This document shows, in pieces, positions 7,588 through 49,130 of a DNA stretch of 64,000 nt (its first letter is position 1; each line of letters starts with the position of its first letter). A model generated the notes under the pieces. The model did no database searches, was not told the origin of the DNA, and was given only the letters and a program-made list of their open reading frames with translations. Source of the stretch: an uncultured Victivallales bacterium (GTDB lineage Bacteria; Verrucomicrobiota; Lentisphaeria; Oligosphaerales; JABHEG01); contig CAZSNT010000035.1 of NCBI GenBank assembly GCA_964607765.1, positions 1,103 to 65,102 of the forward strand. Reading direction: 5' to 3'. A program made the translations under genes and the position numbers.

Positions 7588-7784
7588 CCGCGCCGCCGTC
7601 AACGGGGAGCCGCCGCCGGCACCGACAAGAACCCAAAGGAGCCCGTTCCGTGGAGCAGCAGAGGCCCAACATCATCTACATCCTCGCCGACGACATGGGC
7701 TATGGCGACATGGGATGCAACAACCCCGACTCCAAGATCCCGACCCCGAATAGGGCCTATGTGGGCAGGAGGGCCAAACAATGA
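7584..7784 (+). pseudogene. N-terminal remnant (~55 aa) of an S1 sulfatase
   Basis: The ATG overlaps the stop of 4477..7587 (ATGA). '[30 protein letters not shown]' is a canonical sulfatase N-terminus. Similarity ends at about 7752, before the C-x-P-x-R motif, and the frame stops at 7784. Confidence 0.7.
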
Positions 7785-9367: not shown

Positions 9368-11674
9368 ATGGACAAACTGGAAACCAGGCTATACGCAAAG
9401 CACATCCGGCCGGATACGGGGACGCGCTCGGAGTGCGATCTGTATGCCAACACATATCCCGGGCCAAGTTGGCCTTTCGGCCTGGTTCAGCCCGGGCCGG
9501 ACAACATCACGGGTGAAATTTTCGGGTGTGGCTACTCGTGTGAGCTGCGATTCATTGAGGGTTTCTCAATGATCCGCATGAGCGGGACCGGCTGGTACGG
9601 GGAGTTTGGCAACTTCCTGGTCATGCCGACCACGGGCCCATTGAACACGTATCGCGGTTCCGGAAGAGAGCTCAAACAGGATCGTCAAGTTCCGCCGAGC
9701 TGGCACTCGGAGTTCTTCCATCCCGACGAGACCATCCTGCCCGGGTACTACGGTGTGTTGCTCCATCGCTACAATATCTACTCCGAAGTTACGGCAGCGC
9801 GGCATTGCGGGATGATGCGGTTCACCTTTCCGAAGGATGAGCTCAGCCGGATTCAGATCGACCTTTCCCGGCGTATTGGCGGCACCTCCACAGAACAGGA
9901 AGTGGCTGTAGTTGACAGCAATGCCATAGAAGGTTGGATGCGCTGCGGACCGGAAGGCGGCGGCATGGGGAACGGACATCCCAAGGATCTCAAGTATACG
10001 GTCTATTTCCGCGCCGAGTTCAGTAAGCCCCTGGTGGCATTTGGCACTTGGGAGATTGATTTCCCTGAAGCGCCGAGGCGGGATCGTCTGTTCATCGAGA
10101 GCAAGGAGTACGCGGAGCTCTGCCTTAACGCAGACGTGTTCCCAGGCAGAGCTGCGGCTCACGGGCAGCATGTGGGGTTCTACACTGAATTCCAGACAGA
10201 GAAGGATGAGCAGGTGCTGCTCAAGGTCGGCATTTCCTTCGTCGACATTGAGGGGGCCCGCGCCAACCTGCGGACAGAGATTCCTCACTGGGACTTTGAT
10301 CTTGTCCGACGACAGGTTGTTGAGGCATGGGACGAGGAGCTTTCCGGCCTGGAAATTGGAGGTGCTACGGAACATGATCGCTCGGTGGCGGCCACGGCAC
10401 TCTACCATTGCTGCCTGGACCCGCGCCGGATAGATGATTGCGACGGTCGCTTTGTCGATGGCAACGGCAATGTAAGGAAGGTCGCCGAGTTCTTGCCTCG
10501 GACAGTTTTCAGCGGCTGGGATGCTTTCAGAAGCTATGTCCCGCTGATGACGTTGCTGAATCCGGAGATGGTCAATGACCAGGTAAACACCCTTCTGGAT
10601 GTGGCTGAAACGACCAACAAGGGGCTTCCAAAGTGGGAGTTAATGGGTATTGACATCGAGTGCATGGTCGGTGACCCAGCTGTCGGGACTATTGTCGATG
10701 CCTACATGAAGGGAATCCGGGATTTCGACGTTGAGTTGGCGTACCAGCTCTGCCTGGAAACAGCCTTTGGTCCCCGGACCCATCGTGATGACTGGAAACG
10801 ATACGGCGAGCTCGGCTACTGCCCGAACCGTGTATCGACGACACTTGAGAACTGCTATTTCGACTGGTGCATCTGCCAGTTTGCCAGAGCGCTGTGCCGG
10901 AGGGGCGATGTTCAGGCTTTGCTGCCGCATCAGAAGAACTATCAGAATATATACTGCCCGGAAGTTGGCCTCATGCGGGCAAGAGATGAAGAGGGAAACT
11001 GGCTTCCTTGGAAAGGCCCCACGACATTCGGCCAGGGATGCATTGAGTCGAATCCACTGCAGCAGACGTTCTTTGTTCCCCATGACCCTGTCGGATTGAT
11101 GGAGCTCATGGGCAAAGACCGTTTCTTCAATACGCTGGAAGACATGTTTGCCAAGACCCCGGCAAGCTGCTTCTGGAATCCCTACTACAATCATTCCAAC
11201 GAACCCGTACATCAGTTGATCTACATCTTCTGCTGTACCGGGCGCCCATGGCTGGCTCAGAAATGGAGCCGGTCAGTTCTCAGACATGCTTACGGACTGG
11301 GCCCGGAAGGGCTCTGCGGCATGGATGACGTCGGTCAGCTCTCTGCCTGGTATCTGCTCAGCGCCATGGGAATACACCCCTTCTGTACCGCCAGCAACAT
11401 CTACTGCATAGGCAGCCCTCTGTTCAAGGAGACCGTCTTACAGCTGAATCCAAGATTCCATGAGGGCGATGCATTACGGATTCTCGCGCACAGCAATTCG
11501 GATGACAACATCTATGTACAGAGCGCAACCATCAATGGACGGGCTCTGAACCGGGCATGGGTCACCTATGACGAACTTACCTCAGGAAGTGAGATCGAGT
11601 TTCAGATGGGACCTGAGCCGAACGAAGAGTGGGGCAGCGCACCTGAGACTTGGCCGAGTGTTCTCATAAGATGA
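9368..11674 (+). CDS. GH92 family glycosidase (alpha-mannosidase-like)
   Basis: GH92 motifs are present: 'FSGWDAFRSYVPLMTLL', 'MVGDPAVGTIVDAYMKGIRDFD', 'TLENCYFDWC', 'FVPHDPVGLMELMG', 'NHSNEPVHQLIYIF' and 'GMDDVGQLSAWYLLSAMGIHPF'. No signal peptide. Confidence 0.88.
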   Translation: MDKLETRLYAKHIRPDTGTRSECDLYANTYPGPSWPFGLVQPGPDNITGEIFGCGYSCELRFIEGFSMIRMSGTGWYGEFGNFLVMPTTGPLNTYRGSGRELKQDRQVPPSWHSEFFHPDETILPGYYGVLLHRYNIYSEVTAARHCGMMRFTFPKDELSRIQIDLSRRIGGTSTEQEVAVVDSNAIEGWMRCGPEGGGMGNGHPKDLKYTVYFRAEFSKPLVAFGTWEIDFPEAPRRDRLFIESKEYAELCLNADVFPGRAAAHGQHVGFYTEFQTEKDEQVLLKVGISFVDIEGARANLRTEIPHWDFDLVRRQVVEAWDEELSGLEIGGATEHDRSVAATALYHCCLDPRRIDDCDGRFVDGNGNVRKVAEFLPRTVFSGWDAFRSYVPLMTLLNPEMVNDQVNTLLDVAETTNKGLPKWELMGIDIECMVGDPAVGTIVDAYMKGIRDFDVELAYQLCLETAFGPRTHRDDWKRYGELGYCPNRVSTTLENCYFDWCICQFARALCRRGDVQALLPHQKNYQNIYCPEVGLMRARDEEGNWLPWKGPTTFGQGCIESNPLQQTFFVPHDPVGLMELMGKDRFFNTLEDMFAKTPASCFWNPYYNHSNEPVHQLIYIFCCTGRPWLAQKWSRSVLRHAYGLGPEGLCGMDDVGQLSAWYLLSAMGIHPFCTASNIYCIGSPLFKETVLQLNPRFHEGDALRILAHSNSDDNIYVQSATINGRALNRAWVTYDELTSGSEIEFQMGPEPNEEWGSAPETWPSVLIR

Positions 11675-12843: not shown

Positions 12844-14127
12844 ATGAGCGCAATACTTGATCCGGAAAGAGACATCGCGATTGTCCAGGGGTTGGCACGA
12901 GACGTGGCCGAGATCGCCGCACTGCCGGTACAGGAAGAAAAGCGTGGGCTCTGGCGGCGCCTGAATGGCCTGCAGCCGGTCCGTCCGATGGTTACGATCA
13001 ACCAGATTTGCTGGAACGAAATGGACATTGGCGATGAACTGACTTTGCAGTGCAAGGGAAGGGAATGCCGCGGCTACGAGAGACACTTGCGGCGGATCTT
13101 GTACATGTGGCGCCATTTCCCCGTCGACATGGTAGTGGAGCCTTTCATAGATGTGCCGATGGCGGTGACCAACACGAAGTTCGGGGTTGAGCGTAAGGAC
13201 ACCACCGCCGTCTTGGATCCTACCAGTGCCGTGGTGGGGCACCTCTTTGAAAACCAGTTTCAGACGGAAGCTGATCTCGACAAAATACGTGAGCCGCGGA
13301 TCAGTCATGACAGCGCGGAAACCGAACGGCGACTTGCAGTCGCGCATGAGCTCTTTGACGGCATTCTGGATGTCAGGCGCGTCGGGTACAATCCGTACAT
13401 CGGGTTCTGGGACCCCATCGCGACCTGGATGAGCGTTCAGGATGCGCTCTATGCACTCGTCGACCGCCCCGACTTCATTCATCGCATGCTGGCCCGCATG
13501 CTTGACGGCTATCTAAGCATGCTCGATCAGCTTGAGGAGCAGGGATTGCTCTGCGGTCCGCAAGACATGATCCATTGCACCGGGGCCTATACGGATGAGT
13601 TGCCCCTGTCGGATTACAACCCGGAGAAGCCGCGGACCAAAGACATCTGGGCTTTCGGTCTGGCGCAGATGCTGGGGTCCGTGTCGTCGGCGATGTACAA
13701 GGAGTTCGAGGTCGACTACGCATCTCGGATATGCGAACGATTCGGCTTGGTTTACTACGGTTGCTGTGAGCCGTTGGACATGAAGATGGACGTGGTGCGT
13801 GAACTCCCCAATGTGCGCAAGGTGTCCATGAGCCCATGGGTGGACCAGGCGCGCGGCGCGGCTGGGATCGGCAAGGACTACGTCTACTCGCGCAAACCGA
13901 ATCCGGCGTTGCTGGCTGCCACCCGATTCGATCCCGATGCTGTGCGTCGGGACCTTGCCGAGACAATGGAGTTGTCTGCCAAATACGGCTGCCCTGTGGA
14001 GTTCATCCTGAAAGACATCAGTACGGTCTGCTACGAGCCTCAACGCCTGGAGGAGTGGGCCAAGGTTGCCATGGCGATCGTGGAGCAGGAGCAACCGGCG
14101 GAACATACCAGTGAGGTCAACACATGA
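12844..14127 (+). CDS. Distant URO-D-like TIM-barrel protein, subfamily B (paralog of 29143..30396)
   Basis: It shares 'W.RL......RP', 'YYGCCEPLD.K.D.....PN.RK.S.SPW' and 'E..LKD..TV' with 29143..30396. The URO-D fold assignment is tentative. Confidence 0.45.
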   Translation: MSAILDPERDIAIVQGLARDVAEIAALPVQEEKRGLWRRLNGLQPVRPMVTINQICWNEMDIGDELTLQCKGRECRGYERHLRRILYMWRHFPVDMVVEPFIDVPMAVTNTKFGVERKDTTAVLDPTSAVVGHLFENQFQTEADLDKIREPRISHDSAETERRLAVAHELFDGILDVRRVGYNPYIGFWDPIATWMSVQDALYALVDRPDFIHRMLARMLDGYLSMLDQLEEQGLLCGPQDMIHCTGAYTDELPLSDYNPEKPRTKDIWAFGLAQMLGSVSSAMYKEFEVDYASRICERFGLVYYGCCEPLDMKMDVVRELPNVRKVSMSPWVDQARGAAGIGKDYVYSRKPNPALLAATRFDPDAVRRDLAETMELSAKYGCPVEFILKDISTVCYEPQRLEEWAKVAMAIVEQEQPAEHTSEVNT

Positions 14128-17100
14128 GTGGATGTCCCGATGCCCTGCCCAGGACTTCCGACAGAATCCTGAGCTTTGAGACGCCGGAGGAGATGGCTCA
14201 GGTTCGAGCCACTGGGTCGACCGTCCGGCAGAGCGATACACTCGCCCGGCTCGGAACCCACAGTCTCCAGTGGGACTGGCAAGCCGGGGCGACGATCACC
14301 ATGCCGCTGTTCCACCACTATGCGAAGAAGACGAGACTATCTACCTTCCCTCAAGTCCAGTGCCTGGTAATCTGGCTCTACAATGACCGGCCGAACGCCG
14401 GCCATTTTACGCTTGAACTGGGCTCGAACGGAGCGTTCCCGATCTCCTGCAGCTTCCATCTCAACTACACCGGCTGGCGCACGGGTCACATCCCGCTGTC
14501 CCAGATGGAAGGCGGCGCGCCGCAGGCGGGGGACTACACCGAGTATGAGCATCTACGCATCTGCGTGCCCGACGACCATCCGGAATGCAGCGGCCGTCTC
14601 TTCATTGACGACGTCTACACCACGATGCTCGATGCGCGGCATCCCTCGGCCGATTACCAGGCGCCCTATGTGCGCTGCTGCTTCAACGGGGCGCCGCACG
14701 TCACTCAGTGGCTCAATCAGGCAGCCCTGCCCAGCCGGGAGGACTTGCGCATCAAGCAGATCCCGATTTCCGACGGAGATCTGCAGGCCTCCCGTCGGTT
14801 GTACGAAGCCGAACTCCAGAACCAGGTCGGCAGATTCAGCGGGGACGGGCTGAGTCCGGCGGAATGCGGAGCTGCGCTGCGGCAGCTCGAGGAACTGGGG
14901 ATTCGGGAAGTCGAGTTCGAGGACAAGACCTATCTGCAGAGCCCTTGCATCGGCCTTCGTGGGGAAGGGCTGCCGCCAAGTGTTCTCGATGCGGAAACCC
15001 GGAAGGGGCGGTTCCTGCCCGTCCATGTTTTCCAGAAGACGCTTCATGCGCTGGCCTGCTCGTACCACACCAGTACGGACGATGCTCAGCGATCTGCCTT
15101 GCGCGATGCCTTTCTCCTGGCTACACGCGCCTACCTGCAGTCCGGCTGGGCAGCCGGCAGCAACATGGGCAGCATCCACCACCTCGGATACGCCACACGA
15201 ACAGTGGCCCCCAGCTTCTTGATGATGAAACAGGAGCTCGCCGATGCCGGGCTGCTCCAGGAGGTCTCGGACAGCCTGAACTGGTACGTGGTCGCGCACG
15301 TGGTGAATGACGAGACGCACACCGACCCGGACCTCGACCTGTTCAACACCGTTCTGCAATCGCACTGCCTCGTGTCCATGCTGCGCCTGACCGAGGAGGA
15401 TTGCGCCCGACACGCCATGCTCCTGTCGCAATGGCTGTCCCGCACCGTCGCTGACGGCAGCACATGGGGCGGATTCCGGCCTGACGGCACGGCCTGGCAC
15501 CATTGGGGGCATTACCCGGCGTACACCGGAGGGGCGATTGACAGCGCCGTGAAGGTCGCCAATGCTCTGACTGGCGCAGGCTTCCCGCTCACCCCCAAAG
15601 GCCATGCTGCGCTGCAGAAGGCCGTCAAGGCGATCCTGCTCTACAGCGAGGGGAACCGGTTTCCGCGCAGTCTCTGTGGCCGCCATCCCTTGCGAGGTTC
15701 GCACAAGCGCTTCATCGAGGCCCCCTACACGGCGGCTTTCGTCGACCTGGCCCCCGTGGACGAGGAACTGCAGCGTCTGCACGCCTACCACACGGCCGAC
15801 GGCTCCATCGCGGGTCACTGGACGCTCCCCTACTCCGACCTCAGTCTCCACCGGAGAGATGACTACCTGGCCGCCGTCCGGGGCTTCGACGTCAACTGCT
15901 GGGGAGCGGAGATCTACGGGGTCGTCAACCGCTTCGGGCGCTACCAGTCCTACGGCACACTGGACATCCTGTACAAAGGAGAGCCCGCGCTTCCCTACGA
16001 AGGCTACGACTGGAACCTGAATCCAGGCACCACCATCACCTACCTGCCGCTCGAAGAGCTGGAAGCGCCCATCCCCGTCTGGATGGTCACCGCCACCACG
16101 CGCTTTGCCAACGGAGTGCACGACCGCGACCACCGCAACGGTGCCCACGGCTTTGAGCTGGACGATGCGATGTTCACCAACAAGGATCCGGGCTACGAGG
16201 AGATATCCACGAGGGAGAAGCTCACGGCCCGCAAATCCACCTTCTTCATGGACGACCTGATTCTCTGCCTCGGCACGGGCATTTCCGGGCAGCACGACGC
16301 CGCGCCGGTGTATACCGTGCTCACTCAAAGAGGGATCGACCCACCGACCGGCACGGTGGTGGTAAACGGCGAAGACGCCTCCTTTCCTTACGAACAGCAA
16401 CTCACCGGCCCTGCCACGCTCTTTGATGGCAACCGCACGGGTTTCCTGGTCATGGGCAAAGACACCCGGGTTCTGGTGAGGAAGCAGGAGCAAGTCAGCC
16501 GCGGCGATGCCGTGACGTTCATACCAGGGCGCCAGGCAAAACCCCATCGCGACAAATCCCGTGCCCCCCGCTACCTGGCGGAGACCCGCGGCAACTTCCT
16601 GTCGGCCTGCATCGATCACGGCGTACAACCCCGCGACGCCCGTTACGAGTACGTGGTGTGCCCTGGCGTGGACCGGAGCTCTTTCCAGGCCAAGGCCACA
16701 CGGCTCCAGGCGAATCCCAGGCTGTTCTACCGAATCATCTCATGGAAGAACGCGCTGCACGCCGTGCACGACGTGCGGACCGGCACGGACACCTACGTAC
16801 TCTACGAAGCTCAGGACCTGATTCCCCACGCCGCCCTGCACGCGGTGTCTGAGCCCTGCCTGCTCATGTGCAAGGAAGACGAAGCTGGCGGCTACATGCT
16901 CAGCGTCGCCCTCCCGGACCTGCACGTCACCGCCTTCTCACGAGAGCACAAACACAAGTCATTCGAGAGCCGGCCTCACGAACTGAAGCTGATCTTCGGC
17001 GGGCTCTGGACGTTGCCGGCGGACGCTCCGGATGCTGTCTGCATCGAGCAGGCAGACGGACGGACCACGGTCACCATCCGCGCCCGGCACGGGCAGTCGT

Positions 17101-17225
17101 ACCATGTCCAGCTGAACTCGGACGTGGCCCCATCGGGAAGTGTCAGGAGTTCTATGAAAAGGAAGAATCAATTCACAGGCATCCCACGGAAAAGATCAGG
17201 GCGAAGGATTGGGGCGAAGGATTAA
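14124..17225 (+). CDS. Chondroitinase-ABC-like polysaccharide lyase (PL8-type), paralog P1, no signal peptide
   Basis: Colinear with Proteus chondroitinase ABC I as I recall it. Matching segments are 'HSLQWDWQAG', 'VIWLYNDRP', 'LNYTGWR', 'GSNMGSIHHLGYATR', 'RPDGTAWHHWGHYPAY', 'CGRHPL', 'NRFGRYQSYG', 'YEGYDWNLNPGTT', 'ARKSTFFMDDLILCLGTGIS' and 'IDHGVQPRDARYEYVV'. The start overlaps the previous stop (ATGA). Confidence 0.8.
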   Translation: MSGCPDALPRTSDRILSFETPEEMAQVRATGSTVRQSDTLARLGTHSLQWDWQAGATITMPLFHHYAKKTRLSTFPQVQCLVIWLYNDRPNAGHFTLELGSNGAFPISCSFHLNYTGWRTGHIPLSQMEGGAPQAGDYTEYEHLRICVPDDHPECSGRLFIDDVYTTMLDARHPSADYQAPYVRCCFNGAPHVTQWLNQAALPSREDLRIKQIPISDGDLQASRRLYEAELQNQVGRFSGDGLSPAECGAALRQLEELGIREVEFEDKTYLQSPCIGLRGEGLPPSVLDAETRKGRFLPVHVFQKTLHALACSYHTSTDDAQRSALRDAFLLATRAYLQSGWAAGSNMGSIHHLGYATRTVAPSFLMMKQELADAGLLQEVSDSLNWYVVAHVVNDETHTDPDLDLFNTVLQSHCLVSMLRLTEEDCARHAMLLSQWLSRTVADGSTWGGFRPDGTAWHHWGHYPAYTGGAIDSAVKVANALTGAGFPLTPKGHAALQKAVKAILLYSEGNRFPRSLCGRHPLRGSHKRFIEAPYTAAFVDLAPVDEELQRLHAYHTADGSIAGHWTLPYSDLSLHRRDDYLAAVRGFDVNCWGAEIYGVVNRFGRYQSYGTLDILYKGEPALPYEGYDWNLNPGTTITYLPLEELEAPIPVWMVTATTRFANGVHDRDHRNGAHGFELDDAMFTNKDPGYEEISTREKLTARKSTFFMDDLILCLGTGISGQHDAAPVYTVLTQRGIDPPTGTVVVNGEDASFPYEQQLTGPATLFDGNRTGFLVMGKDTRVLVRKQEQVSRGDAVTFIPGRQAKPHRDKSRAPRYLAETRGNFLSACIDHGVQPRDARYEYVVCPGVDRSSFQAKATRLQANPRLFYRIISWKNALHAVHDVRTGTDTYVLYEAQDLIPHAALHAVSEPCLLMCKEDEAGGYMLSVALPDLHVTAFSREHKHKSFESRPHELKLIFGGLWTLPADAPDAVCIEQADGRTTVTIRARHGQSYHVQLNSDVAPSGSVRSSMKRKNQFTGIPRKRSGRRIGAKD

Positions 17226-17286
17226 GGGACGCGAGCGGGGCAATTGCCCTGATCTTTCGCCCTGATCTTTCGCCCTAATCTCTTCC
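17189..17286. repeat. Imperfect ~40-nt inverted repeat built from tandem 13-nt units, straddling the stop codon of P1
   Basis: The left arm is 'gatcagggcgaag gattggggcgaag gattaagggacgc'. The right arm is 'gccctgatctttc gccctgatctttc gccctaatctctt'. The arms are about 75-80% complementary by eye, with a ~18-nt loop. The stop TAA (17223-17225) lies in the left arm. Confidence 0.6.
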
Positions 17287-17421
17287 GTCGCCCCTGCGGT
17301 GCTAAGTGGGTGGCCGAAAAATGTGCAAACACGGGTCTCCGCGGCGTCCTCCGGCTTCAGGCTCACGAGGTCGCCAGAACCTACGGTTTTGAGCAGTTAT
17401 GGGATGACAGTGGAATCAATT

Positions 17422-17492
17422 GACGATTACGGACGAGGATTACGGTTGACGACCCGCCCGCTCGTGATCCGTAATCGTCGCCCGTAATCGTC
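17422..17492. promoter_or_regulatory. Near-perfect 24-nt inverted repeat (duplicated GATTACGG half-sites) about 55 nt upstream of the P2 start codon
   Basis: 'gacgattacggacgaggattacgg' is followed by 23 nt and then 'ccgtaatcgtcgcccgtaatcgtc'. 22 of 24 positions are complementary. It lies in the only long (320-nt) intergenic gap of the window. It could be an operator, a hairpin or a repeat element. Confidence 0.55.
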
Positions 17493-17545
17493 CGCCGAAT
17501 CGCGCCAGGAGAACCAATGGTCACACGGAGAGAGAGAAACTCCAG

Positions 17546-20500
17546 ATGAAGACTAGAAGCATCCTCCACTCCTCTCTGATGGTTTGCGCATCTGTCGCAT
17601 GCTGCCGGACTGCCGGCGCGGCACACGTCACCTTCGAGCATGACGATGCCCTGGCGCACTGGCACGCTGACGAGGGCTCGTCGAGATTGCTCAGCACAGA
17701 CACCTCCCGGTCCGGGAAGCGCAGCTTGGCCTGGACCTGGGCGAAAGAGCGGAGCGTCTTGACCTGGACTTCGCCGGGAAAGGGCGTCTTCGCCCAGCCA
17801 GGATCGACGTTCACGCTGTTCGTGTACAACCTCACCCCGATTAAAGAGCAGAAGCTGCAGTTCGAGATCGGGACCGCTGAGGCGACCCAGGCCTCGTTTG
17901 ACTTCGGCCTGAACTACAAGGGCTGGCGGGTGCTGCACTTCCTGTACCATGACGACCTGCCCACGCGTCCTGACGCGTCCGCCGACACCTTGCGGATCAT
18001 CAGTCCGGCATCGGTCCCGGAAGGTCGCCTCTATTTCGACATCCTGGACACCGCCTCCCGGTACGGCAGTCAGCACGCCGGCGACTACCAGATGCCCTGG
18101 GTGGCCAACGTCGCTGCCGGCAAACGCGTCAACCATTGGGTCCGCAACTACCACAACGACCAGCTTCCCTATCCATTCGAGCCGTTCACCGCGGACGACG
18201 TCACCGCCGAGATGCAGGCGGCGCTGAAGAAACTGCGAGATCACTACCTGCTCCCCTTGAAGCCGCCTGCGGCAACCGGCATCTCCGAGGAGCAGTACCA
18301 GGGCGTCCTTCGCGACGTGGCGACCTTCGAGATCAAGCGCCGTGGTCCATTCATCACCGGGCGTCCGATCTGGCGGACCGCCAACGAGTTTCTGCACCTG
18401 GTCGAGGACCCGGTCATGGTGACGTCAAGAGGCCGGGGCCGCGGCGGAGTTGGGGTTGTAAACACGATGGGGCACGTGGCCTCGCTGTATTGCGCCGCCA
18501 AAGACCCCGAGCGGAAAGCTCACCTCAGGGAGATCTTCTTCCTGCTCTGCGACTACCTGGCAGAACAGGGGTGGTGCCACGGCAGTGCGGGCGTCCCTGA
18601 AGTCCACCACTTCAATGCCGGCCCGCTGGAAAGTCCCATTGTCCTGATGGAGGACGAGCTGAAAGCGACCGGACGCTACGAGAAACTGGTCAACACCTCC
18701 AAGTGGTACAAGCACTTCGGGCTGGCTCGCGACAGGGCCCCTCAGGGCAATGCGGACCAGTACGGCGGGAACTTGACGAATCTCTGTCGGCTGGCCGCCC
18801 TGTCAGGCGACCCGGTTACGCTGGCCAACGACTTCCGGACCATATCGAGATACGTGGGGGAATCCGTCTTCAGCGTGTCCGACGCCGACGGCTCTCTCTA
18901 CCACCACAACATGGTGCATCCCGGATACACCTATTCCGCGATCCAGAACCTGGCCGCGACCGTGAACAGCTTCTCCCACACCCCCTTCCGCGTTTCAGCC
19001 AAAGGCCATGCCCGCATCAAGAAGGTTGTCTCCGTCATGACGCGCACTGCCTGGCCGGCGACGCCGCGCAGTCTGGCGCATCGCTGCATCGGGGCGAGGC
19101 CTTTCATGGCGGAGCGGACGACCCTGCGCATGGCGCTGGCGGGGACGCCGGACGGCGCCCGGCGCATCGACCCCGACATGGCAGGCCTTTACTTGAGCGT
19201 GATGGCTGCCCAGGGCAAGGAAGACGAACACACGCGCGACTTCCGCCAGCGGGGGATCGCGCCGGTCCCGCTCACCGGTCACGAGCGCCTGGCCAACGCG
19301 GTCTTTTCCAGCCACCGGCGCGACGACTGGCAGGTCGCGATCGGCGGCATGAGCAAGTACTACTTCGGTAATGAGTTCTACGGATGGGGCTGGACCCGGC
19401 ATTGCCTGGCCCGCCATCTCAACACGGGGAATATCCAGGTACTCACCGAGCGGGAGCCGCAGCTCCCCACCGACGGCTGGGACCACAATCACTGGCCCGG
19501 GACGACCGCGCCACTCCTCTCAGAGGCGGAGCTCTACACCCATTGCGCCATGGTGCGGAACACCTCGGTGCTGGCCGGCAATTCGGCTTCCTCCCGCAAT
19601 GGTGTCTGGGGGATGGAATTGAGGCTTCCAGTGCAGCCGCCGGAGGCCGTGATCATCGACGACCCCAGAGTTCCCACGCTTGTGAGCAAGACGAACCCAA
19701 GGGGGTACAAGTCCGCGTTCTTCTTTGGTGAGCACATCATTCTCCTGGGCTCCGGCCTGTCCAGCGAGGTCGAGCAACGTCTGCACACCACGGTGTTGCA
19801 GAGCAGACTGTCGGACGGGGCCGAGCCCTTTGTGGTCAACGGCCAGGACCAGCTGTTTCCTTCGTCGCAGGCCCATGCGAACTCCGCGAAGTACCTGCTC
19901 GGCGACCGCCGCATTGCCTACTACATCCCCGAGGGGAACGACACGCTGGTGATCCGGCGCGGCGAGCAGGAGACGCTCTACTTTCTGCCCTCGGAGTACA
20001 AGCCCGGCAAGGACGCCTACATGCAGAAAGTGATCAGCAACAAGGGCGGACCGGATCGAAGCCAGTTCGACATCAAGGACTTCGAGGTGACGAAGGGGAA
20101 CTACAACCTGGCCTATTTCGACCATGGGAAGAATCCCCAGGGCGCCCGGTACGAGTTCGCCATGCTGATGAACGCCACAGCGGAGAGTGCGGCGGCATTC
20201 ACCGAGAATCCTGCCTACGAGGTGCTGCAGCATGACAACACGGCGCATGTCGTACGCCACAACTCGGGCGACACCGGGTACGCCATTTTCAAGGGCGATG
20301 CGCCGCTGAATGGCGGAGTCCGCAGCGCGAACCGTCCGCTGTTCATCTTGGACGAGAACGGGGGCGGAGTCCGCGCCCTGTATATCGCCTCCAGCGAACG
20401 GGACCGGCGCGACCCCATCGTCCTGGCGGTCGAGGGGACCTTCTCCCAGGTTGAGGGTGGCCGTATCCTGGCCGCGGATGGCGCTACGACGATGATCGAA

Positions 20501-20563
20501 ATTCCATTCGTGCACAGCGTGGTCATTCCTGTACGTCTGAACAAAGGAGAGACTGCCGAATGA
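17546..20563 (+). CDS. Chondroitinase-ABC-like lyase (PL8-type), paralog P2, secreted
   Basis: Signal peptide 'MKTRSILHSSLMVCASVACCRTAGA'. Motifs 'RSLAWTWAKE', 'FTLFVYNLTP', 'LNYKGWR', 'DGSLYHHNMVHPGY', 'DGWDHNHWPGTT', 'YKSAFFFGEHIILLGSGLSS' and 'FDHGKNPQGARYEFAML'. Confidence 0.8.
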   Translation: MKTRSILHSSLMVCASVACCRTAGAAHVTFEHDDALAHWHADEGSSRLLSTDTSRSGKRSLAWTWAKERSVLTWTSPGKGVFAQPGSTFTLFVYNLTPIKEQKLQFEIGTAEATQASFDFGLNYKGWRVLHFLYHDDLPTRPDASADTLRIISPASVPEGRLYFDILDTASRYGSQHAGDYQMPWVANVAAGKRVNHWVRNYHNDQLPYPFEPFTADDVTAEMQAALKKLRDHYLLPLKPPAATGISEEQYQGVLRDVATFEIKRRGPFITGRPIWRTANEFLHLVEDPVMVTSRGRGRGGVGVVNTMGHVASLYCAAKDPERKAHLREIFFLLCDYLAEQGWCHGSAGVPEVHHFNAGPLESPIVLMEDELKATGRYEKLVNTSKWYKHFGLARDRAPQGNADQYGGNLTNLCRLAALSGDPVTLANDFRTISRYVGESVFSVSDADGSLYHHNMVHPGYTYSAIQNLAATVNSFSHTPFRVSAKGHARIKKVVSVMTRTAWPATPRSLAHRCIGARPFMAERTTLRMALAGTPDGARRIDPDMAGLYLSVMAAQGKEDEHTRDFRQRGIAPVPLTGHERLANAVFSSHRRDDWQVAIGGMSKYYFGNEFYGWGWTRHCLARHLNTGNIQVLTEREPQLPTDGWDHNHWPGTTAPLLSEAELYTHCAMVRNTSVLAGNSASSRNGVWGMELRLPVQPPEAVIIDDPRVPTLVSKTNPRGYKSAFFFGEHIILLGSGLSSEVEQRLHTTVLQSRLSDGAEPFVVNGQDQLFPSSQAHANSAKYLLGDRRIAYYIPEGNDTLVIRRGEQETLYFLPSEYKPGKDAYMQKVISNKGGPDRSQFDIKDFEVTKGNYNLAYFDHGKNPQGARYEFAMLMNATAESAAAFTENPAYEVLQHDNTAHVVRHNSGDTGYAIFKGDAPLNGGVRSANRPLFILDENGGGVRALYIASSERDRRDPIVLAVEGTFSQVEGGRILAADGATTMIEIPFVHSVVIPVRLNKGETAE
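17633..20563 (+). repeat. Copy 1 of a tandem segmental duplication (partner 22176..25043)
   Basis: The nucleotide and protein sequences are nearly identical to the partner over roughly the first 1.8 kb, then diverge progressively. The offset is 4,543 nt. Confidence 0.85.
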
Positions 20564-22041
20564 GCGGACTAGCCGGACCAGTGTTTCCGAAGACGGTTGG
20601 GGCGGGCCCCGCGGCCAGTGAGGAGCAGCAGGTGAGAAATGTGGTGCTCGTGTACGTGGACGACCTCAGGCCGGAGATCAACTGCTATGGCAGGAGCAAA
20701 CTGATCACGCCGAACCTGGACAGGCTTGCGGCGCGGTCAATCGTCTTTGACAAGGCCTACTGCCAGATCCCCGTCTGTATGCCTTCGAGGGTCAGCACGC
20801 TCAGCGGAATGTACCCACGCAGCGTGAGGCAACACCGCTTGCGCAATCTCCTCCCGGAAGGGAACCCGTCGCTTCCCGGCCACTTCAAGGCAAATGGCTA
20901 CGACACGATCTCGATCGGGAAAGTCTATCATGCCAACGACGATGATCCGGAATCATGGACGAAACGGTACACGCACACGTTCCATGAGCAGGAGCTGGTC
21001 TGTCACGGGTACTGTTCCGGGTATCAGCTGAAAGAAAACCTGGACGGCAGGAGGCTCGCGAAGACCCGCCGCAACACGTCTGCACTCACCGAGTGTGTGG
21101 ACGCTCCAGACAGCGCCTACCCGGATGCAGAGTCGGCGGACAAGGCGGTTGCCGACATTGAGGCGTACAGCAAGTCGGACACCCCTCTCTTCCTCGCGGT
21201 AGGATTCTACCGCCCGCACCTTCCGTGGGCTGTGCCCAAGAAGTACTGGGACTTGTACAAGCGCGAAGAAATCGACCTGGCGCAGAGCCAGTTCCTCCCC
21301 AAAGGAGCCATCAGCCGCAACTGTTGGGGCGACTTGATGCACTACGGCGACGAAGTCGTGAACGCCGCAGACGCGCAACGTACAGACTTGGATGCGAAGA
21401 CCTTCCCTCTTCTGCCCGAGGACAAGCAGCGTGAGCTCGTTCACGGCTACTGGGCCTCTGTCAGCTTCCTCGACGCGCAGGTCGGGCGAGTGCTCGACGC
21501 TCTGGACGAGACGGGGATGGCCGACAACACGATGGTCGTTCTGGCCAGCGACAATGGCTGGCACTTGGGAGAACACTTGCTGTGGTCGAAATGCAGCAAC
21601 TACGAGGAGTCCGCGAGGGTCCCGTTGATGATCGCAGCGCCTGGAATCGCGGGCGGGAAGAAGACTGGGGCGGTGGCTGAGTTGGTGGACCTGTATCCAA
21701 CCCTGTGTGAGTTTGCAGGCCTGCCGCTGCCCGGTCATCTCGAGGGAGTCAGCATGATGCCGCTGCTGCAGGATCCGTCGCGAGAATGGCGGAAGGCGGC
21801 ATTTCACATCTGGGGCGGAGCACGTTCCATGCGGACGGAGAGATATCGCCTCACCGTCTACGACGAGCCGATGCCGGATGGCAACGGCTTCCAGTTGCCG
21901 GGCAACGGGCGCTATGAACTGTATGACTATGAAACCGACCCGGACGGCAATGTGAATATTGCTGAAGACCCGAAGAACAGGGCGTTGCTGAGTGAGCTCA
22001 TTGAGCAGATGGACGCCGGCTGGGAAGGAGCCCGACCATGA
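20560..22041 (+). CDS. S1 sulfatase, iduronate-2-sulfatase-like, Cys-type
   Basis: 'VVLVYVDDLRPEINCYGRSKLITPNLDRLA' and 'CMPSRVSTLSGMYPRS' resemble the DDLRP...CxPSR pattern of iduronate-2-sulfatase. ATGA overlaps at both ends. Confidence 0.88.
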   Translation: MSGLAGPVFPKTVGAGPAASEEQQVRNVVLVYVDDLRPEINCYGRSKLITPNLDRLAARSIVFDKAYCQIPVCMPSRVSTLSGMYPRSVRQHRLRNLLPEGNPSLPGHFKANGYDTISIGKVYHANDDDPESWTKRYTHTFHEQELVCHGYCSGYQLKENLDGRRLAKTRRNTSALTECVDAPDSAYPDAESADKAVADIEAYSKSDTPLFLAVGFYRPHLPWAVPKKYWDLYKREEIDLAQSQFLPKGAISRNCWGDLMHYGDEVVNAADAQRTDLDAKTFPLLPEDKQRELVHGYWASVSFLDAQVGRVLDALDETGMADNTMVVLASDNGWHLGEHLLWSKCSNYEESARVPLMIAAPGIAGGKKTGAVAELVDLYPTLCEFAGLPLPGHLEGVSMMPLLQDPSREWRKAAFHIWGGARSMRTERYRLTVYDEPMPDGNGFQLPGNGRYELYDYETDPDGNVNIAEDPKNRALLSELIEQMDAGWEGARP

Positions 22042-25000
22042 GACGACTGCACTGTTTTGCCTTGTTGGCCGTAGCCGTGTTGGCAGGTTGGCAGACCAGC
22101 GCCGAGGAGAGCGTTGGCCGCGGGAAGAAGGACGCGGCGCCGACCTTGCGGCCCGTGCGACCGGGACACGAGAGCTTCGAGCATGACGACGCGCTGGCGC
22201 ACTGGCACGCTGACGAGGGCTCGTCGAGAGAGCTCAGCGCGGACACCTCCCGGTCCGGGAAGCGCAGTCTGGCCTGGACCTGGACGAAAGAGCGGAGCGT
22301 CCTGACCTGGACCTCGCCGCAGAAGGGCGTCTTCGCCCAGCCAAGATCGACGTTCACGCTGTTCGTGTACAACCTCACCCCGATCAAGGAGCAGAAGCTG
22401 CAGTTCGAGATCGGGACCGCTGAGGCGACCCAGGCCTCATTTGACTTCGGCCTCAACTACAAGGGCTGGCGGGTGCTGCACTTCCTGTACCATGGCGACC
22501 TGCCCACGCGTCCCGACGCGTCCGCCGACACCTTGCGGATCATCAGCCCGGCATCGGTCCCGGAAGGTCGCCTCTATTTCGACATCCTGGATACCACCTC
22601 CCGCTACGGCAGTCAGCACGCCGGCGATTACCAGATGCCCTGGGTGGCCAACGTCGCTGCCGGCAAACGCGTCAACCATTGGGTCCGCAACTACCACAAC
22701 GACCAGCTTCCCTATCCATTCGAGCCGTTCACCGCGGACGACGTCACCGCCGAGATGCAGGCGGCGCTGAAGAAACTGCGAGATCACTACCTGCTCCCCT
22801 TGAAGCCGCCTGCGGCAACCGGCATCTCCGAGGAGCAGTACCAGGGCGTCCTTCGCGACGTGGCGACCTTCGAGATCAAGCGCCGTGGTCCATTCATCAC
22901 CGGGCGTCCGATCTGGCGGACCGCCAACGAGTTTCTGCACCTGGTCGAGGACCCGGTCATGGTGACGTCAAGAGGCCGGGGCCGCGGCGGAGTTGGGGTC
23001 GTGAACGCGATGGGGGATGTGGCCTCGCTGTATTGCGCCGCCAAAGACCCCGAGCGGAAAGCGCACCTCAAGGAGACCTTCTTTCTGCTCTGCGACTACC
23101 TGGCAGAACAGGGGTGGTGCCACGGCAGCGCGGGCGTCCCTGAGGTCCACCACTTCAATGCCGGCCCGCTGGAAAGCCCCATCGTCCTGATGGAGGACGA
23201 GCTGAAGGCGACCGGACGCTACGAGAAGCTGGTCAACACCTCCAAGTGGTACAAGCACTTCGGGCTGGCTCGCGACGAGGCCCCCCATGGCAATGCGGAC
23301 CAGTACGGCGCGAACTTGACGAATCTCTGTCGGCTGGCGGCTTTGTCAGGCGACCCGGTCACGCTGGCCAACGACTTCCGGACCATCTCAAGATACGTGG
23401 GGGAATCCATCTTCACCGTGTCCGACGCCGACGGCTCTCTTTATCACCACAGCATGGTGCATCCCGGATACACCTACTCCGCGATCCGGAACCTGGCCGC
23501 GACCGTGAACAGCTTCTCCCACACCCCCTTCCGCGTTGCAGCCAAAGGGCATGCCCGCATCAAGAAGATCGTCTCCGTCATGACGCGCACTGCCTGGCCG
23601 GCGACGCCGCGCAGTCTGGCGCACCGCTGCATCGGCATGAAGCCCTTCATGGCCGAACAGACGACCCTGCACATGGCGCTGGCGGGGACGCCGGACGGCG
23701 CCCGGCGCATCGACCCCGACATGGCGGGGCTTTACCTGACCGTGATGGCTGCCCAAGGCAAGGAAGACGAGCACACGCGCGATTTCCGCCAGCAGGGGAT
23801 CAAGCCGGTCCCGCTCACCGGCCACGATCGCCTGGCCAACGCGGTCTTCTCCAGCCATCGGCGCGACGGCTGGCAGGTCGCGGTCGGCGGCATGAACAAG
23901 TACTTCACCGGCAACGAGTTCTACGGATGGAACTGGAGCCGCCACTGCCTTGCCCGGCATCTCAACAAGGGCAGCATCCAGGTGCTGACCGAGAGGGAGC
24001 TCCAGGTCCCCACCGACGGCTGGGACCACAATCACTGGCCCGGGACGACCGCACCGGTTCTCCCGGAAGAGAAGCTCTACAGGCAGTACGGCGCGATGAA
24101 GAGCTACAGCACGCTTGGCGGCAATACAGCTTCAGCCCGGAACGGGGTCTGGGGGATGGAATTGGACTTCCGCGAGATACCCAGCTTGCGAGTCCGGGGC
24201 CGCAAGTCCGCATTCTTCTTCGGGGAGCATGTCATTTTTCTGGGCTCCGGCCTGTCGAGCGAAGATGGGCAAGGTCTTCATACCACGATCCTGCAAAACA
24301 GGCTGTCGGACGGGGGCGAGCCGTTTTTGGTCAGCGGCGTCGGGCAGGCGTTTCCTTCTGCGCAGACCTACCCGGATGGCGCGCGCTTCCTGCTCGGCGA
24401 TCGGCGCATCGCCTATTACATCCCGGCAGGAAACGACCCGTTGACGGTACAACGCGGCGAGCAGGAGACGCTGTACTTCCTGCCCTCGGAGTACAAGCCC
24501 GGCAAAGACGCCTACATGGAGAAAGTGATCCACAACAAGCGGGGACCGGATCGAAGCCAGTTCGACGTCGAGGATTTCAATGTCACCCGCGGCAACTACA
24601 ACCTGGCCTACTTCGACCACGGAGAAAACGTCCAGGGGGGCCGGTACGAATTTGCCATGCTCATGGACGCCACTGCGGAGAGCGCAGCGGCGTTTACCCG
24701 AAGTCCTGCCTACGAGGTCCTCCAGCACGATGACGCGGCGCATATCGTGCGGCATGACTGCGGCGACACAGGCTATGCGGTGTTTGAGGGCGGTGCGCCG
24801 CTCAATGGCGAAGTCCGCAACTCGAACCGTCCGGTGTTCATTCTGGACGAAGAGCGGGGCGACTCCCGCACCCTCTACATCGCCTCCAGCGAACGGGACC
24901 GCCCCGACCCCGTCGTCCTGGACATCGCGGGGACCTTTGCCGAGATCCGCGGCGGCAAGATTCTGTCCACCCATGGCGACACGACACGGATCGAGGCGCC

Positions 25001-25043
25001 CTTCGTACACAGCGTTGTCATCCGCGTGGGGCTCAGCCGATGA
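22038..25043 (+). CDS. Chondroitinase-ABC-like lyase (PL8-type), paralog P3, secreted; recent duplicate of P2
   Basis: Signal peptide 'MRRLHCFALLAVAVLAGWQTSA'. Same motifs as P2. The N-terminal ~600 aa are almost identical to P2. Confidence 0.8.
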   Translation: MRRLHCFALLAVAVLAGWQTSAEESVGRGKKDAAPTLRPVRPGHESFEHDDALAHWHADEGSSRELSADTSRSGKRSLAWTWTKERSVLTWTSPQKGVFAQPRSTFTLFVYNLTPIKEQKLQFEIGTAEATQASFDFGLNYKGWRVLHFLYHGDLPTRPDASADTLRIISPASVPEGRLYFDILDTTSRYGSQHAGDYQMPWVANVAAGKRVNHWVRNYHNDQLPYPFEPFTADDVTAEMQAALKKLRDHYLLPLKPPAATGISEEQYQGVLRDVATFEIKRRGPFITGRPIWRTANEFLHLVEDPVMVTSRGRGRGGVGVVNAMGDVASLYCAAKDPERKAHLKETFFLLCDYLAEQGWCHGSAGVPEVHHFNAGPLESPIVLMEDELKATGRYEKLVNTSKWYKHFGLARDEAPHGNADQYGANLTNLCRLAALSGDPVTLANDFRTISRYVGESIFTVSDADGSLYHHSMVHPGYTYSAIRNLAATVNSFSHTPFRVAAKGHARIKKIVSVMTRTAWPATPRSLAHRCIGMKPFMAEQTTLHMALAGTPDGARRIDPDMAGLYLTVMAAQGKEDEHTRDFRQQGIKPVPLTGHDRLANAVFSSHRRDGWQVAVGGMNKYFTGNEFYGWNWSRHCLARHLNKGSIQVLTERELQVPTDGWDHNHWPGTTAPVLPEEKLYRQYGAMKSYSTLGGNTASARNGVWGMELDFREIPSLRVRGRKSAFFFGEHVIFLGSGLSSEDGQGLHTTILQNRLSDGGEPFLVSGVGQAFPSAQTYPDGARFLLGDRRIAYYIPAGNDPLTVQRGEQETLYFLPSEYKPGKDAYMEKVIHNKRGPDRSQFDVEDFNVTRGNYNLAYFDHGENVQGGRYEFAMLMDATAESAAAFTRSPAYEVLQHDDAAHIVRHDCGDTGYAVFEGGAPLNGEVRNSNRPVFILDEERGDSRTLYIASSERDRPDPVVLDIAGTFAEIRGGKILSTHGDTTRIEAPFVHSVVIRVGLSR
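22176..25043 (+). repeat. Copy 2 of the tandem segmental duplication (partner 17633..20563)
   Basis: See the entry for 17633..20563. Confidence 0.85.
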
Positions 25044-26839
25044 CGACCCACACCACACCCGCCGACAGACTCGCCTGGTGGCGCGAGGCCCGTTTCGGCA
25101 TGTTCATCCACTGGGGACTGTATGCGATCCCCGCCGGCGAATGGAAGGGCAAACGCATCAAGGGCCTCGGGGTATGGCTCCAGAAACAGGCGCGCATTCC
25201 CCATCCTGAGTACGCAGAGCTCGCAGGGCAGTTCAACCCCGTGGACTTCGACGCCGACTTCATCGCCAAACTCGCACACGACGCAGGCATGCGCTATCTG
25301 GTCTTCACTGCCAAGCACCATGACGGCTTTGCCATGTACCACTCCCGCGTCGATCCCTTCAACATCACGGAGGCGTCCCCGTTCGGTCGCGACCCGACCG
25401 CCGAACTGGCCGCGGCCTGCCATCGACACGGGCTCACCTTTTGCCTGTACTACTCGCAGGATCTCGACTGGGCGCATCCCGACGGCGGCGGCAACGACTG
25501 GGACTACGCCCCGGAATCCAAGTCCTTCGAGACCTACTTCAGGGACAAGTGCCTCCCGCAGGTCGAGGAGCTTCTCACCCGCTACGGTCCCATCGGCTTG
25601 ATGTGGTTCGACATGGCAACCAACATCACCCGCGAACAGAGCATCCGCCTGAGAGACCTGGTCCACCAACTCCAGCCCGATTGTCTGGTCAGCGGTCGCG
25701 TCGGTCACGGTGTGGGCGACTACGGCTCGTTGGGCGACAACCAGTTGCCGTTGGGCACGCCCGAGGGCGACTGGGAAACCCCCGCCACCCTCAACGACTC
25801 CTGGGGCTTCAAGCACTACGACCACAACTGGCGCGCGCCCGACGCGATCGTCGGCGCCATTGTGGACACTGCCGAGAAGGGCGTCAACTACCTGCTCAAC
25901 ATCGGCCCCGACGACGCCGGCGCCGTACCGCCGCCCAGCGTGGACATCCTTCGTCGCACGGCGGACTGGATGATCGTCCACGGCGAAGCGATTCACGGCA
26001 CTGCCGCGAATCCCTGGAACTGCGAGTTCTCCTGGGGGCGCGTGACCGTCAAGGGCACGAGACTGTACCTGTTCTTCCGCGACTGGCCGGGCTCCGCGTT
26101 CGAGCTCCGGGGGCTGACCACCGAGGTCGCGAGCGCGGCTGTGTTGGGCGGCACTGCAATCGGCTGTCAGCAAAGAATGGTGGGCGACACGCCCGTCCTC
26201 AGCCTGACGTTGCCTGGCACAGCCCCTGCGAAGCCCATATCGGTCGTCAGGCTGACGTGCGCCGGCCCGCCCGCGGTCATCGCCGGTTGCTGCCAGCAGA
26301 GCGACGGAACGCTGACCTTGCCGCCGCAACTTGCCACGCCCCACCTGCACAGTGCGCCGATCTCGCGCGAGGCCGTCGGCCTGGGCGGCGCGCTCGCCGC
26401 CGCGGAAGCAGCCGAAGCACAGAACGAAGTCAGGGCCGGTCCGCGCATGGGCGTCGGGCCATCCGGGGTCGTCGAGAACTGGTACAGCGAGGACGACTAC
26501 CTCACCTGGACCTGCCACATCCTCCAGCCCGGAACCCACGAGGTGTCCTTGCAGACCATGGCGCGCAAGTACCAGCCGTGGGAAGGCGGTCACGACGTGG
26601 TGGTGGAACTGGCAGGGCAACGCATTGCCGCCAGCGTCCAGGACCACGCTCGCTTGCACACCTTGCGCAATCAGCACTTCGAGGAAGCGCTCTCGCGTCT
26701 GGGCACGCTGACGATCGACGCGGTCGGGACCTACGAGCTCACCCTGCGCGCCTCCCACATCAACCCGACCATCGACCACGGCCTCTGCGTCTCACGCCTG
26801 GCTCTGTGGTCCCTGGCGCCGACATCGGAGAGACCATGA
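25040..26839 (+). CDS. Alpha-L-fucosidase, GH29
   Basis: Motifs 'WWREARFGMFIHWGLYAIPAG', 'YLVFTAKHHDGFAMYHS' and 'YGPIGLMWFDM'. It is a paralog of 2584..4401. No signal peptide. ATGA overlaps at both ends. Confidence 0.9.
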   Translation: MTTHTTPADRLAWWREARFGMFIHWGLYAIPAGEWKGKRIKGLGVWLQKQARIPHPEYAELAGQFNPVDFDADFIAKLAHDAGMRYLVFTAKHHDGFAMYHSRVDPFNITEASPFGRDPTAELAAACHRHGLTFCLYYSQDLDWAHPDGGGNDWDYAPESKSFETYFRDKCLPQVEELLTRYGPIGLMWFDMATNITREQSIRLRDLVHQLQPDCLVSGRVGHGVGDYGSLGDNQLPLGTPEGDWETPATLNDSWGFKHYDHNWRAPDAIVGAIVDTAEKGVNYLLNIGPDDAGAVPPPSVDILRRTADWMIVHGEAIHGTAANPWNCEFSWGRVTVKGTRLYLFFRDWPGSAFELRGLTTEVASAAVLGGTAIGCQQRMVGDTPVLSLTLPGTAPAKPISVVRLTCAGPPAVIAGCCQQSDGTLTLPPQLATPHLHSAPISREAVGLGGALAAAEAAEAQNEVRAGPRMGVGPSGVVENWYSEDDYLTWTCHILQPGTHEVSLQTMARKYQPWEGGHDVVVELAGQRIAASVQDHARLHTLRNQHFEEALSRLGTLTIDAVGTYELTLRASHINPTIDHGLCVSRLALWSLAPTSERP

Positions 26840-33580: not shown

Positions 33581-33682
33581 CTGAAGACACCTGGATCGGC
33601 CATCCCAACGCGAATGCTTCGAGGAGTGAATCAACCGGGACCACACCGAAACCGGTCCGAGCAACTAAGAGAGTTCAACACG

Positions 33683-37796: not shown

Positions 37797-37855
37797 GCGG
37801 TTGACGTTCAAGACAAGTGAGAACGAGCAGGTCGAACTCAGAATGGAGCAGTAGC

Positions 37856-41083: not shown

Positions 41084-41109
41084 AACCCCGAGCACATAGG
41101 AGTCCGGTC

Positions 41110-46929: not shown

Positions 46930-46948
46930 ACAGAGAAGCAGGGAATCG

Positions 46949-49087: not shown

Positions 49088-49130
49088 TGTCCTGGGAAAG
49101 GTGGCGGAGAACTCAACTGGAATCAAAGGA

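Follow-up and report, generated by a model that had tools for sequence, protein, structure and literature searches.

Six predicted chondroitinase-ABC-type polysaccharide lyases, assigned to five old lineages and one duplicate, in a sulfated-sugar gene island of an uncultured Victivallales bacterium

A stretch of 64,000 nucleotides from an uncultured Victivallales bacterium (GenBank assembly GCA_964607765.1, contig CAZSNT010000035.1, positions 1,103 to 65,102; hereafter the window) was analysed for six genes, P1 to P6, that resemble chondroitinase ABC (ChABC). The window has a GC content of about 0.55-0.67, and every plausible gene in it lies on the + strand. All six open reading frames (ORFs) were found there at exactly the starts listed in an earlier reading of the DNA letters (the original prediction), which had described a six-fold expansion of ChABC-like lyases with systematic active-site variation. 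P1 to P6 add new, uncharacterised members to an enzyme family already known, and they stand in a sulfated-glycan island typical of the Planctomycetes-Verrucomicrobia-Chlamydiae (PVC) group. Coordinates are collected in Table 1.

Pfam profile searches placed all six proteins in polysaccharide lyase family 8 (PL8), as had been predicted. Each matched Lyase_N (PF09092), Lyase_catalyt (PF09093) and Lyase_8 (PF02278) far over the gathering scores (E 1e-15 to 8e-49), and P5 and P6 additionally matched Lyase_8_C. In NCBIfam the only matches, weak and below threshold, were to models of chondroitinase AC and hyaluronate lyase; none of the six is therefore taken as an equivalog of a named enzyme. Searched against the PDB, P1 matched ChABC II of Bacteroides thetaiotaomicron (2q1f, 5e-75) and ChABC I of Proteus vulgaris (1hn0/7eip, about 5e-68) colinearly over residues 310-937; the colinearity with ChABC I proposed originally is thereby borne out. 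Matches of P1 to other PL8 lyases in the PDB were weaker (1e-4 to 2e-6). AlphaFold models were used for fold assignment only. With the AlphaFold2 model of P5 (pLDDT 78), Foldseek returned 2q1f (6e-59), 1hn0 (3e-55) and 7eip as top folds (range 6e-59 to 5e-55, TM 0.72-0.74), and xanthan, chondroitin AC and hyaluronate lyases ranked lower (E about 1e-19 to 1e-29).

Because Pfam, the PDB sequence matches and the fold of P5 agree, the assignment was regarded as secure: judged by their sequences and the P5 model, P1 to P6 are PL8 polysaccharide lyases of ChABC type. Their PL8_2-like placement was based on similarity to ChABC I and II, both PL8_2 enzymes. The N-terminal, alpha-toroid and beta-sandwich domains of 2q1f recur in the six. 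Chondroitin AC, hyaluronate and xanthan lyases and the fungal mannuronate lyase 7r2x have the alpha-toroid and beta-sandwich core and the His/Tyr mechanism in common with them but have neither the Lyase_N domain nor the ChABC-type catalytic-domain profile. The ChABC-type family is large, since a profile built on the six proteins matched 974 clusters (50% identity) at E <= 1e-30 among 1.84 billion representatives.

P2 and P3 are 84% identical, whereas all other pairs share only 24-28%. A neighbour-joining tree (179 sequences) put P1 and P6 on the side of ChABC I and P2/P3, P4 and P5 in the opposite half, where each had nearest relatives of its own. Identity to the nearest relative was 63% for P1, 41% for P2/P3, 54% for P4, 59% for P5 and 47% for P6. 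A search of the full protein database yielded 13 homologues of P5 and 17 of P4 from other metagenomes. The scan for related loci was run with P1 alone; the six-protein alignment had no sufficiently conserved stretch. Orthologues of P1 (51-65% identity) were found in Pontiella sulfatireligans, a Lentimonas metagenome-assembled genome (MAG), a Pontiellaceae genome and Dysgonomonadaceae MAGs, and relatives of P6 (36-40%) stand beside the P1 orthologues in the Lentimonas MAG and the Pontiellaceae genome. Because pairs other than P2/P3 are so divergent and fall in clades with homologues of their own, the six genes are assigned to five ancient lineages plus one recent duplicate. The same identities and separate clades rule out a recent amplification in situ of all six, P2/P3 excepted, and 'six-fold expansion' was therefore an overstatement.

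The P2/P3 pair is itself a mosaic. Residues from about 81 to 480 are 93-100% identical, with a synonymous divergence (dS) of 0-0.17 and one window of 100 codons without any difference; in the C-terminal beta-sandwich half, identity falls to 56-82% (dS 0.44-0.76). The ratio of nonsynonymous to synonymous divergence (omega) was 0.1-0.4 throughout, which argues for purifying selection. The near-identity of the N-terminal halves is probably due to gene conversion, or to a recent duplication of part of the gene, around the sulfatase gene that lies between P2 and P3.

Catalytic residues were mapped with MAFFT L-INS-i alignments and, independently, with pairwise phmmer alignments. From HMMER output, ChABC I was rebuilt over residues 346-966 and 2q1f over three stretches, with a numbering that reproduces R500, H501, Y508, R560 and H561, and conservation was counted over 178 relatives. 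The base His501 of ChABC I corresponds to H460, H454, H471, H461, H469 and H464 in P1 to P6, and the acid Tyr508 to Y467, Y461, Y478, Y468, Y476 and Y471. Conservation of these two residues, claimed from the beginning, held in both kinds of alignment. Equivalents of Arg560 are R520, R513, R530, R521, R528 and R523; those of the neutraliser Asp444 (D398 in 2q1f) are D405, D404, D421, D409, D418 and D411; and those of Glu653 are E596, E610, E627, E592, D680 and E604. Tyr655 of ChABC I is kept in all six. The numbering of 2q1f (H344/H345, H454, Y461, R514 and E628, the last in 'WAA-E-HY') gave a consistent map, in which His454, Tyr461, Arg514, Glu628 and Asp398 are kept, apart from the Asp that P5 has for Glu628, and all six share His453. 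The catalytic residues reported for 2q1f are His345, Tyr461 and His454, with Asp398 as neutraliser (PMC12088678).

Across the 178 relatives, His was found at position 501 in 174, Tyr at 508 in 167 and Arg at 560 in 167. The column of Glu653 holds Glu in 176, Gln in one and Asp in one, the sole Asp being that of P5. The beta-elimination machinery is accordingly present in all six (His501 base, Tyr508 acid, Arg560, Asp444 neutraliser and Glu653), with Asp680 of P5 as the sole exception, and P1 to P4 and P6 keep the full His/Tyr/Arg/Glu tetrad. A sub-clade of relatives (P0029, P0030, P0268, P0294, P0205 and P0225) has Tyr ('PGY-T') at the Arg560 position and keeps His501, Tyr508 and Glu653.

The active-site variation reported originally was traced to a different column. 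The motif strings quoted for it are all present, namely DG..[WYF]HH.....[AG]Y, GRHPL in P1 and P6, GRW in P5, and Glu, Asp or Gly before GW(D/N). The Glu of 'EGWDW' had been taken for Glu653, which was a wrong register: the true Glu653 of ChABC I is the Glu of 'NVWSS-E-IYNK', and that of 'QQ-E-GWDWN' is Glu686 (PDB numbering). Position 686 varies freely across the relatives (D57, E50, N17, A11, K10 and others) and is absent from the ligand contacts in ChABC I disaccharide complexes (PMC8684500), so the reported variation falls at a non-catalytic, variable position. On this ground it is very improbable that the acid/base tetrad differs systematically among P1 to P6 (Glu, Asp or Gly at 'Glu653') and that their mechanisms are hence altered. 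The Glu/Asp/Gly pattern that speaks for such a difference is genuinely in the sequences, but the true Glu653 column is conserved, with Glu in five of the paralogues and Asp in P5 only. The differing acid/base constellations came mostly from the misplaced register.

P5 remains the paralogue with a changed acid. Its Asp680 is encoded by GAC at 58567-58569, the codon was identical in contigs of three independent seawater metagenome assemblies, and all homologues of the P5 clade have Glu at this position. In ChABC I, E653A and E653D had no detectable activity and E653Q retained about 4% of kcat (PMC8684500, supplementary Table SII). P5 may be catalytically weakened. The earlier suspicion that P5 is a binding protein or has an altered mechanism stays, on a different basis: Asp680 at the true Glu653 position, and not the supposed Gly. 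A stronger version, in which P5 is dead or decaying, a binding protein or incipient pseudogene and not a working lyase, is possible though doubtful. The uniqueness of Asp680, its recurrence in three assemblies and the inactivity of E653D all favour it, as do two insertions of a repeat element missing from all P5 homologues and the low confidence of the model around the changed residue (pLDDT < 50 at residues 678-689). Yet the ORF is intact at 1142 amino acids with a signal peptide, its junctions with both neighbours are coupled by 4 nt, and the His, Tyr, Arg and Asp neutraliser are all retained. The insertions are moreover in frame and in low-confidence segments, presumably loops, and Glu to Asp is a conservative change for which local compensation is possible.

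Further differences among the paralogues lie outside the tetrad. The second catalytic His (His345 of 2q1f, His389 of ChABC I) is present as part of a His pair in P1 (H352/H353), P2 (H354/H355), P3 (H371/H372) and P6 (H347/H348), as in 2q1f; unlike 2q1f, P4 (Asn358) and P5 (Gly366) lack it. In the P4 clade (alignment of 17 homologues) the pair is replaced throughout by L/G-G/N. In P5 the position reads H365-G366, with a 10-residue loop deletion common to its clade, nearly all of which has lost the second His. About half of the wider family lacks this residue, so it is no requirement for membership of the ChABC type. PMC12088678, which cites Shaya 2008, describes the second His as part of a 'composite active site' for both uronate epimers.

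Contact residues for carboxylate, sulfate and the N-acetyl group or N-acetylgalactosamine (GalNAc) were taken as defined for ChABC I in PMC8684500. Unlike ChABC I, where Arg500 contacts the carboxylate and the 4-sulfate, all six paralogues have His at that position, as do 173 of the 178 relatives. Of the sulfate/GalNAc contacts, His561 reads H, gap, gap, gap, W and H in P1 to P6, and Asn564, Asp490 and Asp658 are variable among them; P2 and P3 have other residues in place of Arg395 and Asn447. Variation among the paralogues extends to the C-terminal beta-sandwich half, and it is this half that separates P2 from P3. Of the earlier proposal of distinct linkage or sulfation specificities, the part that stands is that differences between the paralogues plausibly change specificity; the acid/base basis given for it does not.

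N-termini were assessed heuristically. Those of P2 to P6 are hydrophobic. P1 has no signal peptide and begins right at the conserved domain (14124-14180), and its four closest orthologues (Pontiella, Lentimonas, Pontiellaceae and Dysgonomonadaceae; L002, L003, L005 and L006) all have a hydrophobic signal peptide. P1 may thus be cytoplasmic or mis-localised in this organism.

Table 1. Lyase genes, neighbouring genes and heptamer repeats in the window
Feature	Coordinates	Strand	Basis and remarks
GH29 fucosidase	2584..4401	+	
S1 sulfatase	7781..9253	+	
GH92 alpha-mannosidase family	9368..11674	+	
P1, PL8 ChABC-type lyase, 1033 aa	14124..17225	+	Pfam; PDB 2q1f 5e-75; start overlaps upstream gene's stop by 4 nt
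P2, PL8 ChABC-type lyase, 1005 aa	17546..20563	+	Pfam, alignments; hydrophobic N-terminus
S1 sulfatase between P2 and P3	20560..22041	+	Pfam Sulfatase; 4-nt ATGA overlap on each side
P3, PL8 ChABC-type lyase, 1001 aa	22038..25043	+	Pfam, alignments; 84% identical duplicate of P2
GH29 alpha-L-fucosidase	25040..26839	+	Pfam Alpha_L_fucos 2e-73; 4-nt overlap with P3 stop
GH95-like protein	26836..29097	+	Pfam Glyco_hydro_95_cat 1.5e-20; ATG overlaps GH29 stop by 4 nt
P4, PL8 ChABC-type lyase, 1029 aa	30491..33580	+	Pfam, alignments, clade alignment of 17 homologues
Heptamer repeat in P4	33197-33315		includes (CAATCTG)n tract 33255-33315
GH92	33614..36025	+	69% identical to GH92 at 9368..11674; 33 nt past P4
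S1 sulfatase	36069..37796	+	
GH29 fucosidase	46910..49087	+	
S1 sulfatase	49101..50558	+	
S1 sulfatase	52492..54036	+	
PL6/chondroitinase-B-like beta-helix protein, 768 aa	54227..56533	+	Pfam Chondroitinas_B 1e-18; PDB 1dbg 3e-15
P5, PL8 ChABC-type lyase, 1142 aa	56530..59958	+	Pfam, alignments, AlphaFold2 model and Foldseek
Heptamer repeats in P5	58172-58213, 58311-58368, 59581-59659		two in-frame insertions
P6, PL8 ChABC-type lyase, 975 aa	59955..62882	+	Pfam, alignments; N-terminus like a signal peptide or lipoprotein signal

Around the lyase genes the window holds three GH29, one GH95-like and two GH92 genes and five S1 sulfatase genes; GH29 and GH95 fucosidases cluster with many S1 sulfatases in this way in fucoidan-type islands of PVC bacteria. 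ATGA overlaps of 4 nt link genes into two chains, one running through P2, the sulfatase, P3, GH29 and the GH95-like gene and the other through the PL6-like gene, P5 and P6, which suggests that the joined genes are co-translated. The sulfatase between P2 and P3 was closest in the PDB to arylsulfatase 6hhm (1.9e-72) and human iduronate-2-sulfatase 5fql (3.6e-64). The PL6-like protein, whose N-terminal third matches chondroitinase B/PL6 and whose stop overlaps the start of P5 by 4 nt, is a candidate seventh lyase of the locus. Hexosaminidases had no Pfam match among the approximately 30 + strand ORFs scanned. The endo-fucanase families GH107 and GH168, whose Pfam coverage is uncertain, were not detected in the window. 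ORFs 1827-2579, 50679-52577 and 63113-63691 had no Pfam or NCBIfam match, and 50679-52577 had no PDB match either.

Pairs of PL8 genes clustered with sulfatases were also found in the Lentimonas MAG, the Pontiellaceae genome, a Verrucomicrobia MAG and Lentisphaera marina; that of the Verrucomicrobia MAG (L007) also has a GH29 gene and a PL6-like protein, the latter preceding a PL8 gene. The sequence occurs in seawater metagenomes, and the host is probably a marine member of the PVC group; the island, all on one strand, spans no less than 64 kb. RNA runs were searched for the region of the PL6-like gene, P5 and P6, and no run holding it was found.

Two further protein groups were seen in the island. 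ORFs 12844-14127 and 29143-30396 are paralogues (31% identical), the first immediately preceding P1 (4-nt overlap) and the second P4 (94-nt gap). Neither had a Pfam, NCBIfam or PDB sequence match. Their family is very large and highly conserved: more than 6,400 homologues were found, the best 120 being about 67-73% identical; the few named ones come from Lentisphaerae, Planctomycetota, Hydrogenedentes and Latescibacterota. An AlphaFold2 model (pLDDT 80) has a uroporphyrinogen-decarboxylase (URO-D) fold (Foldseek E 2e-7). With the URO-D/MtaA-like genes 11721-12794, 44463-45566 and 45317-46606, the island has five URO-D-superfamily proteins in total, none with a signal peptide. A role in O-demethylation of methylated sugars would be a guess only, and the adjacency of URO-D-fold and PL8 genes is not conserved around the P1 orthologues. 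The second group comprises three paralogous PQQ/BamB-like beta-propeller proteins at 4477-7587, 37817-41083 and 40933-44376 (about 1,040-1,150 amino acids, 36-43% identical). An N-terminal SAM-methyltransferase-like domain is present in two of them, and the N-termini of at least two resemble signal peptides.

The repeat in P4 and P5 consists of (CAATCTG)n and its reverse complement, inserted in frame (peptide 'QSAICNL...') and absent from all homologues of both proteins. In both genes it sits in the same loop of the C-terminal beta-sandwich. All six frames of the heptamer unit are free of stop codons; because seven is not a multiple of three, slippage in copy number would shift the reading frame. 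The second insertion in P5 is an inverted pair of about 200 nt that folds at -93 kcal/mol (z = -5.1). In the source metagenomes the repeat is dispersed, with a depth of 60-170 against 5-10 for its flanks, and short-read contigs break at the P4 repeat. It was found in at least 120 other metagenome contigs (L012-L131, mean GC 0.61). There, 51 of 62 adjacent tract pairs are oriented '(CAGATTG)n ... (CAATCTG)n', that is, as inverted hairpin pairs, and some tracts lie in frame within nonribosomal peptide synthetase and dehydrogenase genes. An assembly chimera at the repeats was ruled out, as the sequence past each repeat still matches the clade of its own paralogue. The heptamer as a word was not found in the literature searched. 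The repeat looks like a palindromic element colonising coding sequence, comparable to the palindromic elements of Rickettsia.

As for function, P1 to P6 are likely to be ChABC-type lyases, of five ancient lineages plus one duplicate, that divide uronate cleavage among them in a sulfated-sugar island. They would cleave 4-linked uronates by beta-elimination, with the work split by linkage, by epimer or sulfation context and by cell compartment. Their targets would be one or several fucosylated, sulfated marine glycans. The coupled sulfatase resembling iduronate-2-sulfatase would work alongside the lyases, as would the GH29 and GH95-like enzymes and the nearby GH92 and PL6-like ones. Since PL8 spans lyases of glycosaminoglycans (GAGs), xanthan side chains and alginate, membership of the family does not fix the substrate.

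Several observations weigh against this interpretation. A single line of evidence, the gene neighbourhood, suggests a fucosylated, sulfated, uronate-containing marine glycan as substrate, and in two homologue contexts (L010 and L011) adjacent sulfatases are shared and GH29 or GH92 genes are not. GH88/GH105 unsaturated-uronyl hydrolases were not found by Pfam among the scanned + strand ORFs, so this downstream step is missing in the window. The P5 model is poorly determined at Asp680. Finally, pairwise and multiple alignments place the Arg560 equivalent of P2 and of P4 differently, an ambiguity that the original prediction had pointed out in calling this region only loosely alignable. Its placement was settled only by clade conservation, which fixes a conserved Arg in both proteins ('..NxxGR-A' in the P4 clade, '..R-C' in the P2/P3 clade).

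The substrates could instead be classical GAGs, in a locus for chondroitin or dermatan sulfate, hyaluronan or the fucosylated chondroitin sulfate of sea cucumbers, with six enzymes covering endo and exo modes and sulfation variants as in Bacteroides chondroitin sulfate loci. ChABC I and II are the closest solved relatives, the composite His pair for both uronate epimers is kept in P1, P2, P3 and P6, and a sulfatase resembling iduronate-2-sulfatase lies between P2 and P3. Pontiella, the source of the closest P1 orthologue, can grow on chondroitin sulfate (PMC7356697), and the fucosidases would be compatible with its fucosylated form. This explanation is nevertheless unlikely. Identity to characterised enzymes, 2q1f included, is only about 20-30%, and the GalNAc-sulfate binders Arg500, His561, Asn564 and Asp658 are replaced in most paralogues. 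Unlike the gut Bacteroides locus, the window has fucosidases, two genes of the GH92 mannosidase family and many sulfatases, and no GH88, hexosaminidase or GalNAc-processing genes among the ORFs scanned; the GH88 and hexosamine-processing genes that stand beside the lyases in a GAG locus of Bacteroides type were not found in it.

A more specific form of the division of labour, and a tentative one, is that the P2-P5 clades are lyases for non-GAG marine sulfated glycans that bear fucose, with the clades of P4 and P5, in which the His345-type base is lost, epimer-specific and P5 tuned or disabled by its Asp. Candidates include fucoglucuronomannan-type fucoidans and the fucose-containing sulfated polysaccharides of diatoms, in which 4-linked glucuronate would be surrounded by fucose and perhaps mannose. 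Known fucoglucuronomannan ('fucoidan') lyases are PL43 enzymes of the FdlA type and the PL40 saccorhizan lyase (PMC9410043; bioRxiv 10.64898/2026.05.19.726164). Their chemistry, beta-elimination at glucuronate in a fucosylated, sulfated, mannose-containing glycan, would be the same if the substrate guess from context is right; their folds and families are unrelated to PL8. In the fucoidan literature searched, PL8 was unmentioned or appeared only as an annotated chondroitin lyase, and no PL8 enzyme with fucoglucuronomannan-lyase activity was found.

On the corrected map, three places are likely to encode specificity: the second His, the positions that contact sulfate, and the beta-sandwich half. 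As leads, the unique Asp of P5, the second His missing from two clades and the operon coupled to fucosidases and a sulfatase are the most useful; the Glu-to-Asp change of P5 is one clean natural experiment. Cleavage of the proposed non-GAG glycans by the P2-P5 clades would be a new specificity for PL8. Sulfated algal glycans with fucose and uronate degrade slowly and matter for marine carbon storage, and if some PL8-like clades act on them, they would represent a missing enzyme class for the degradation of fucoidan-type glycans and provide new tools for their structural analysis.

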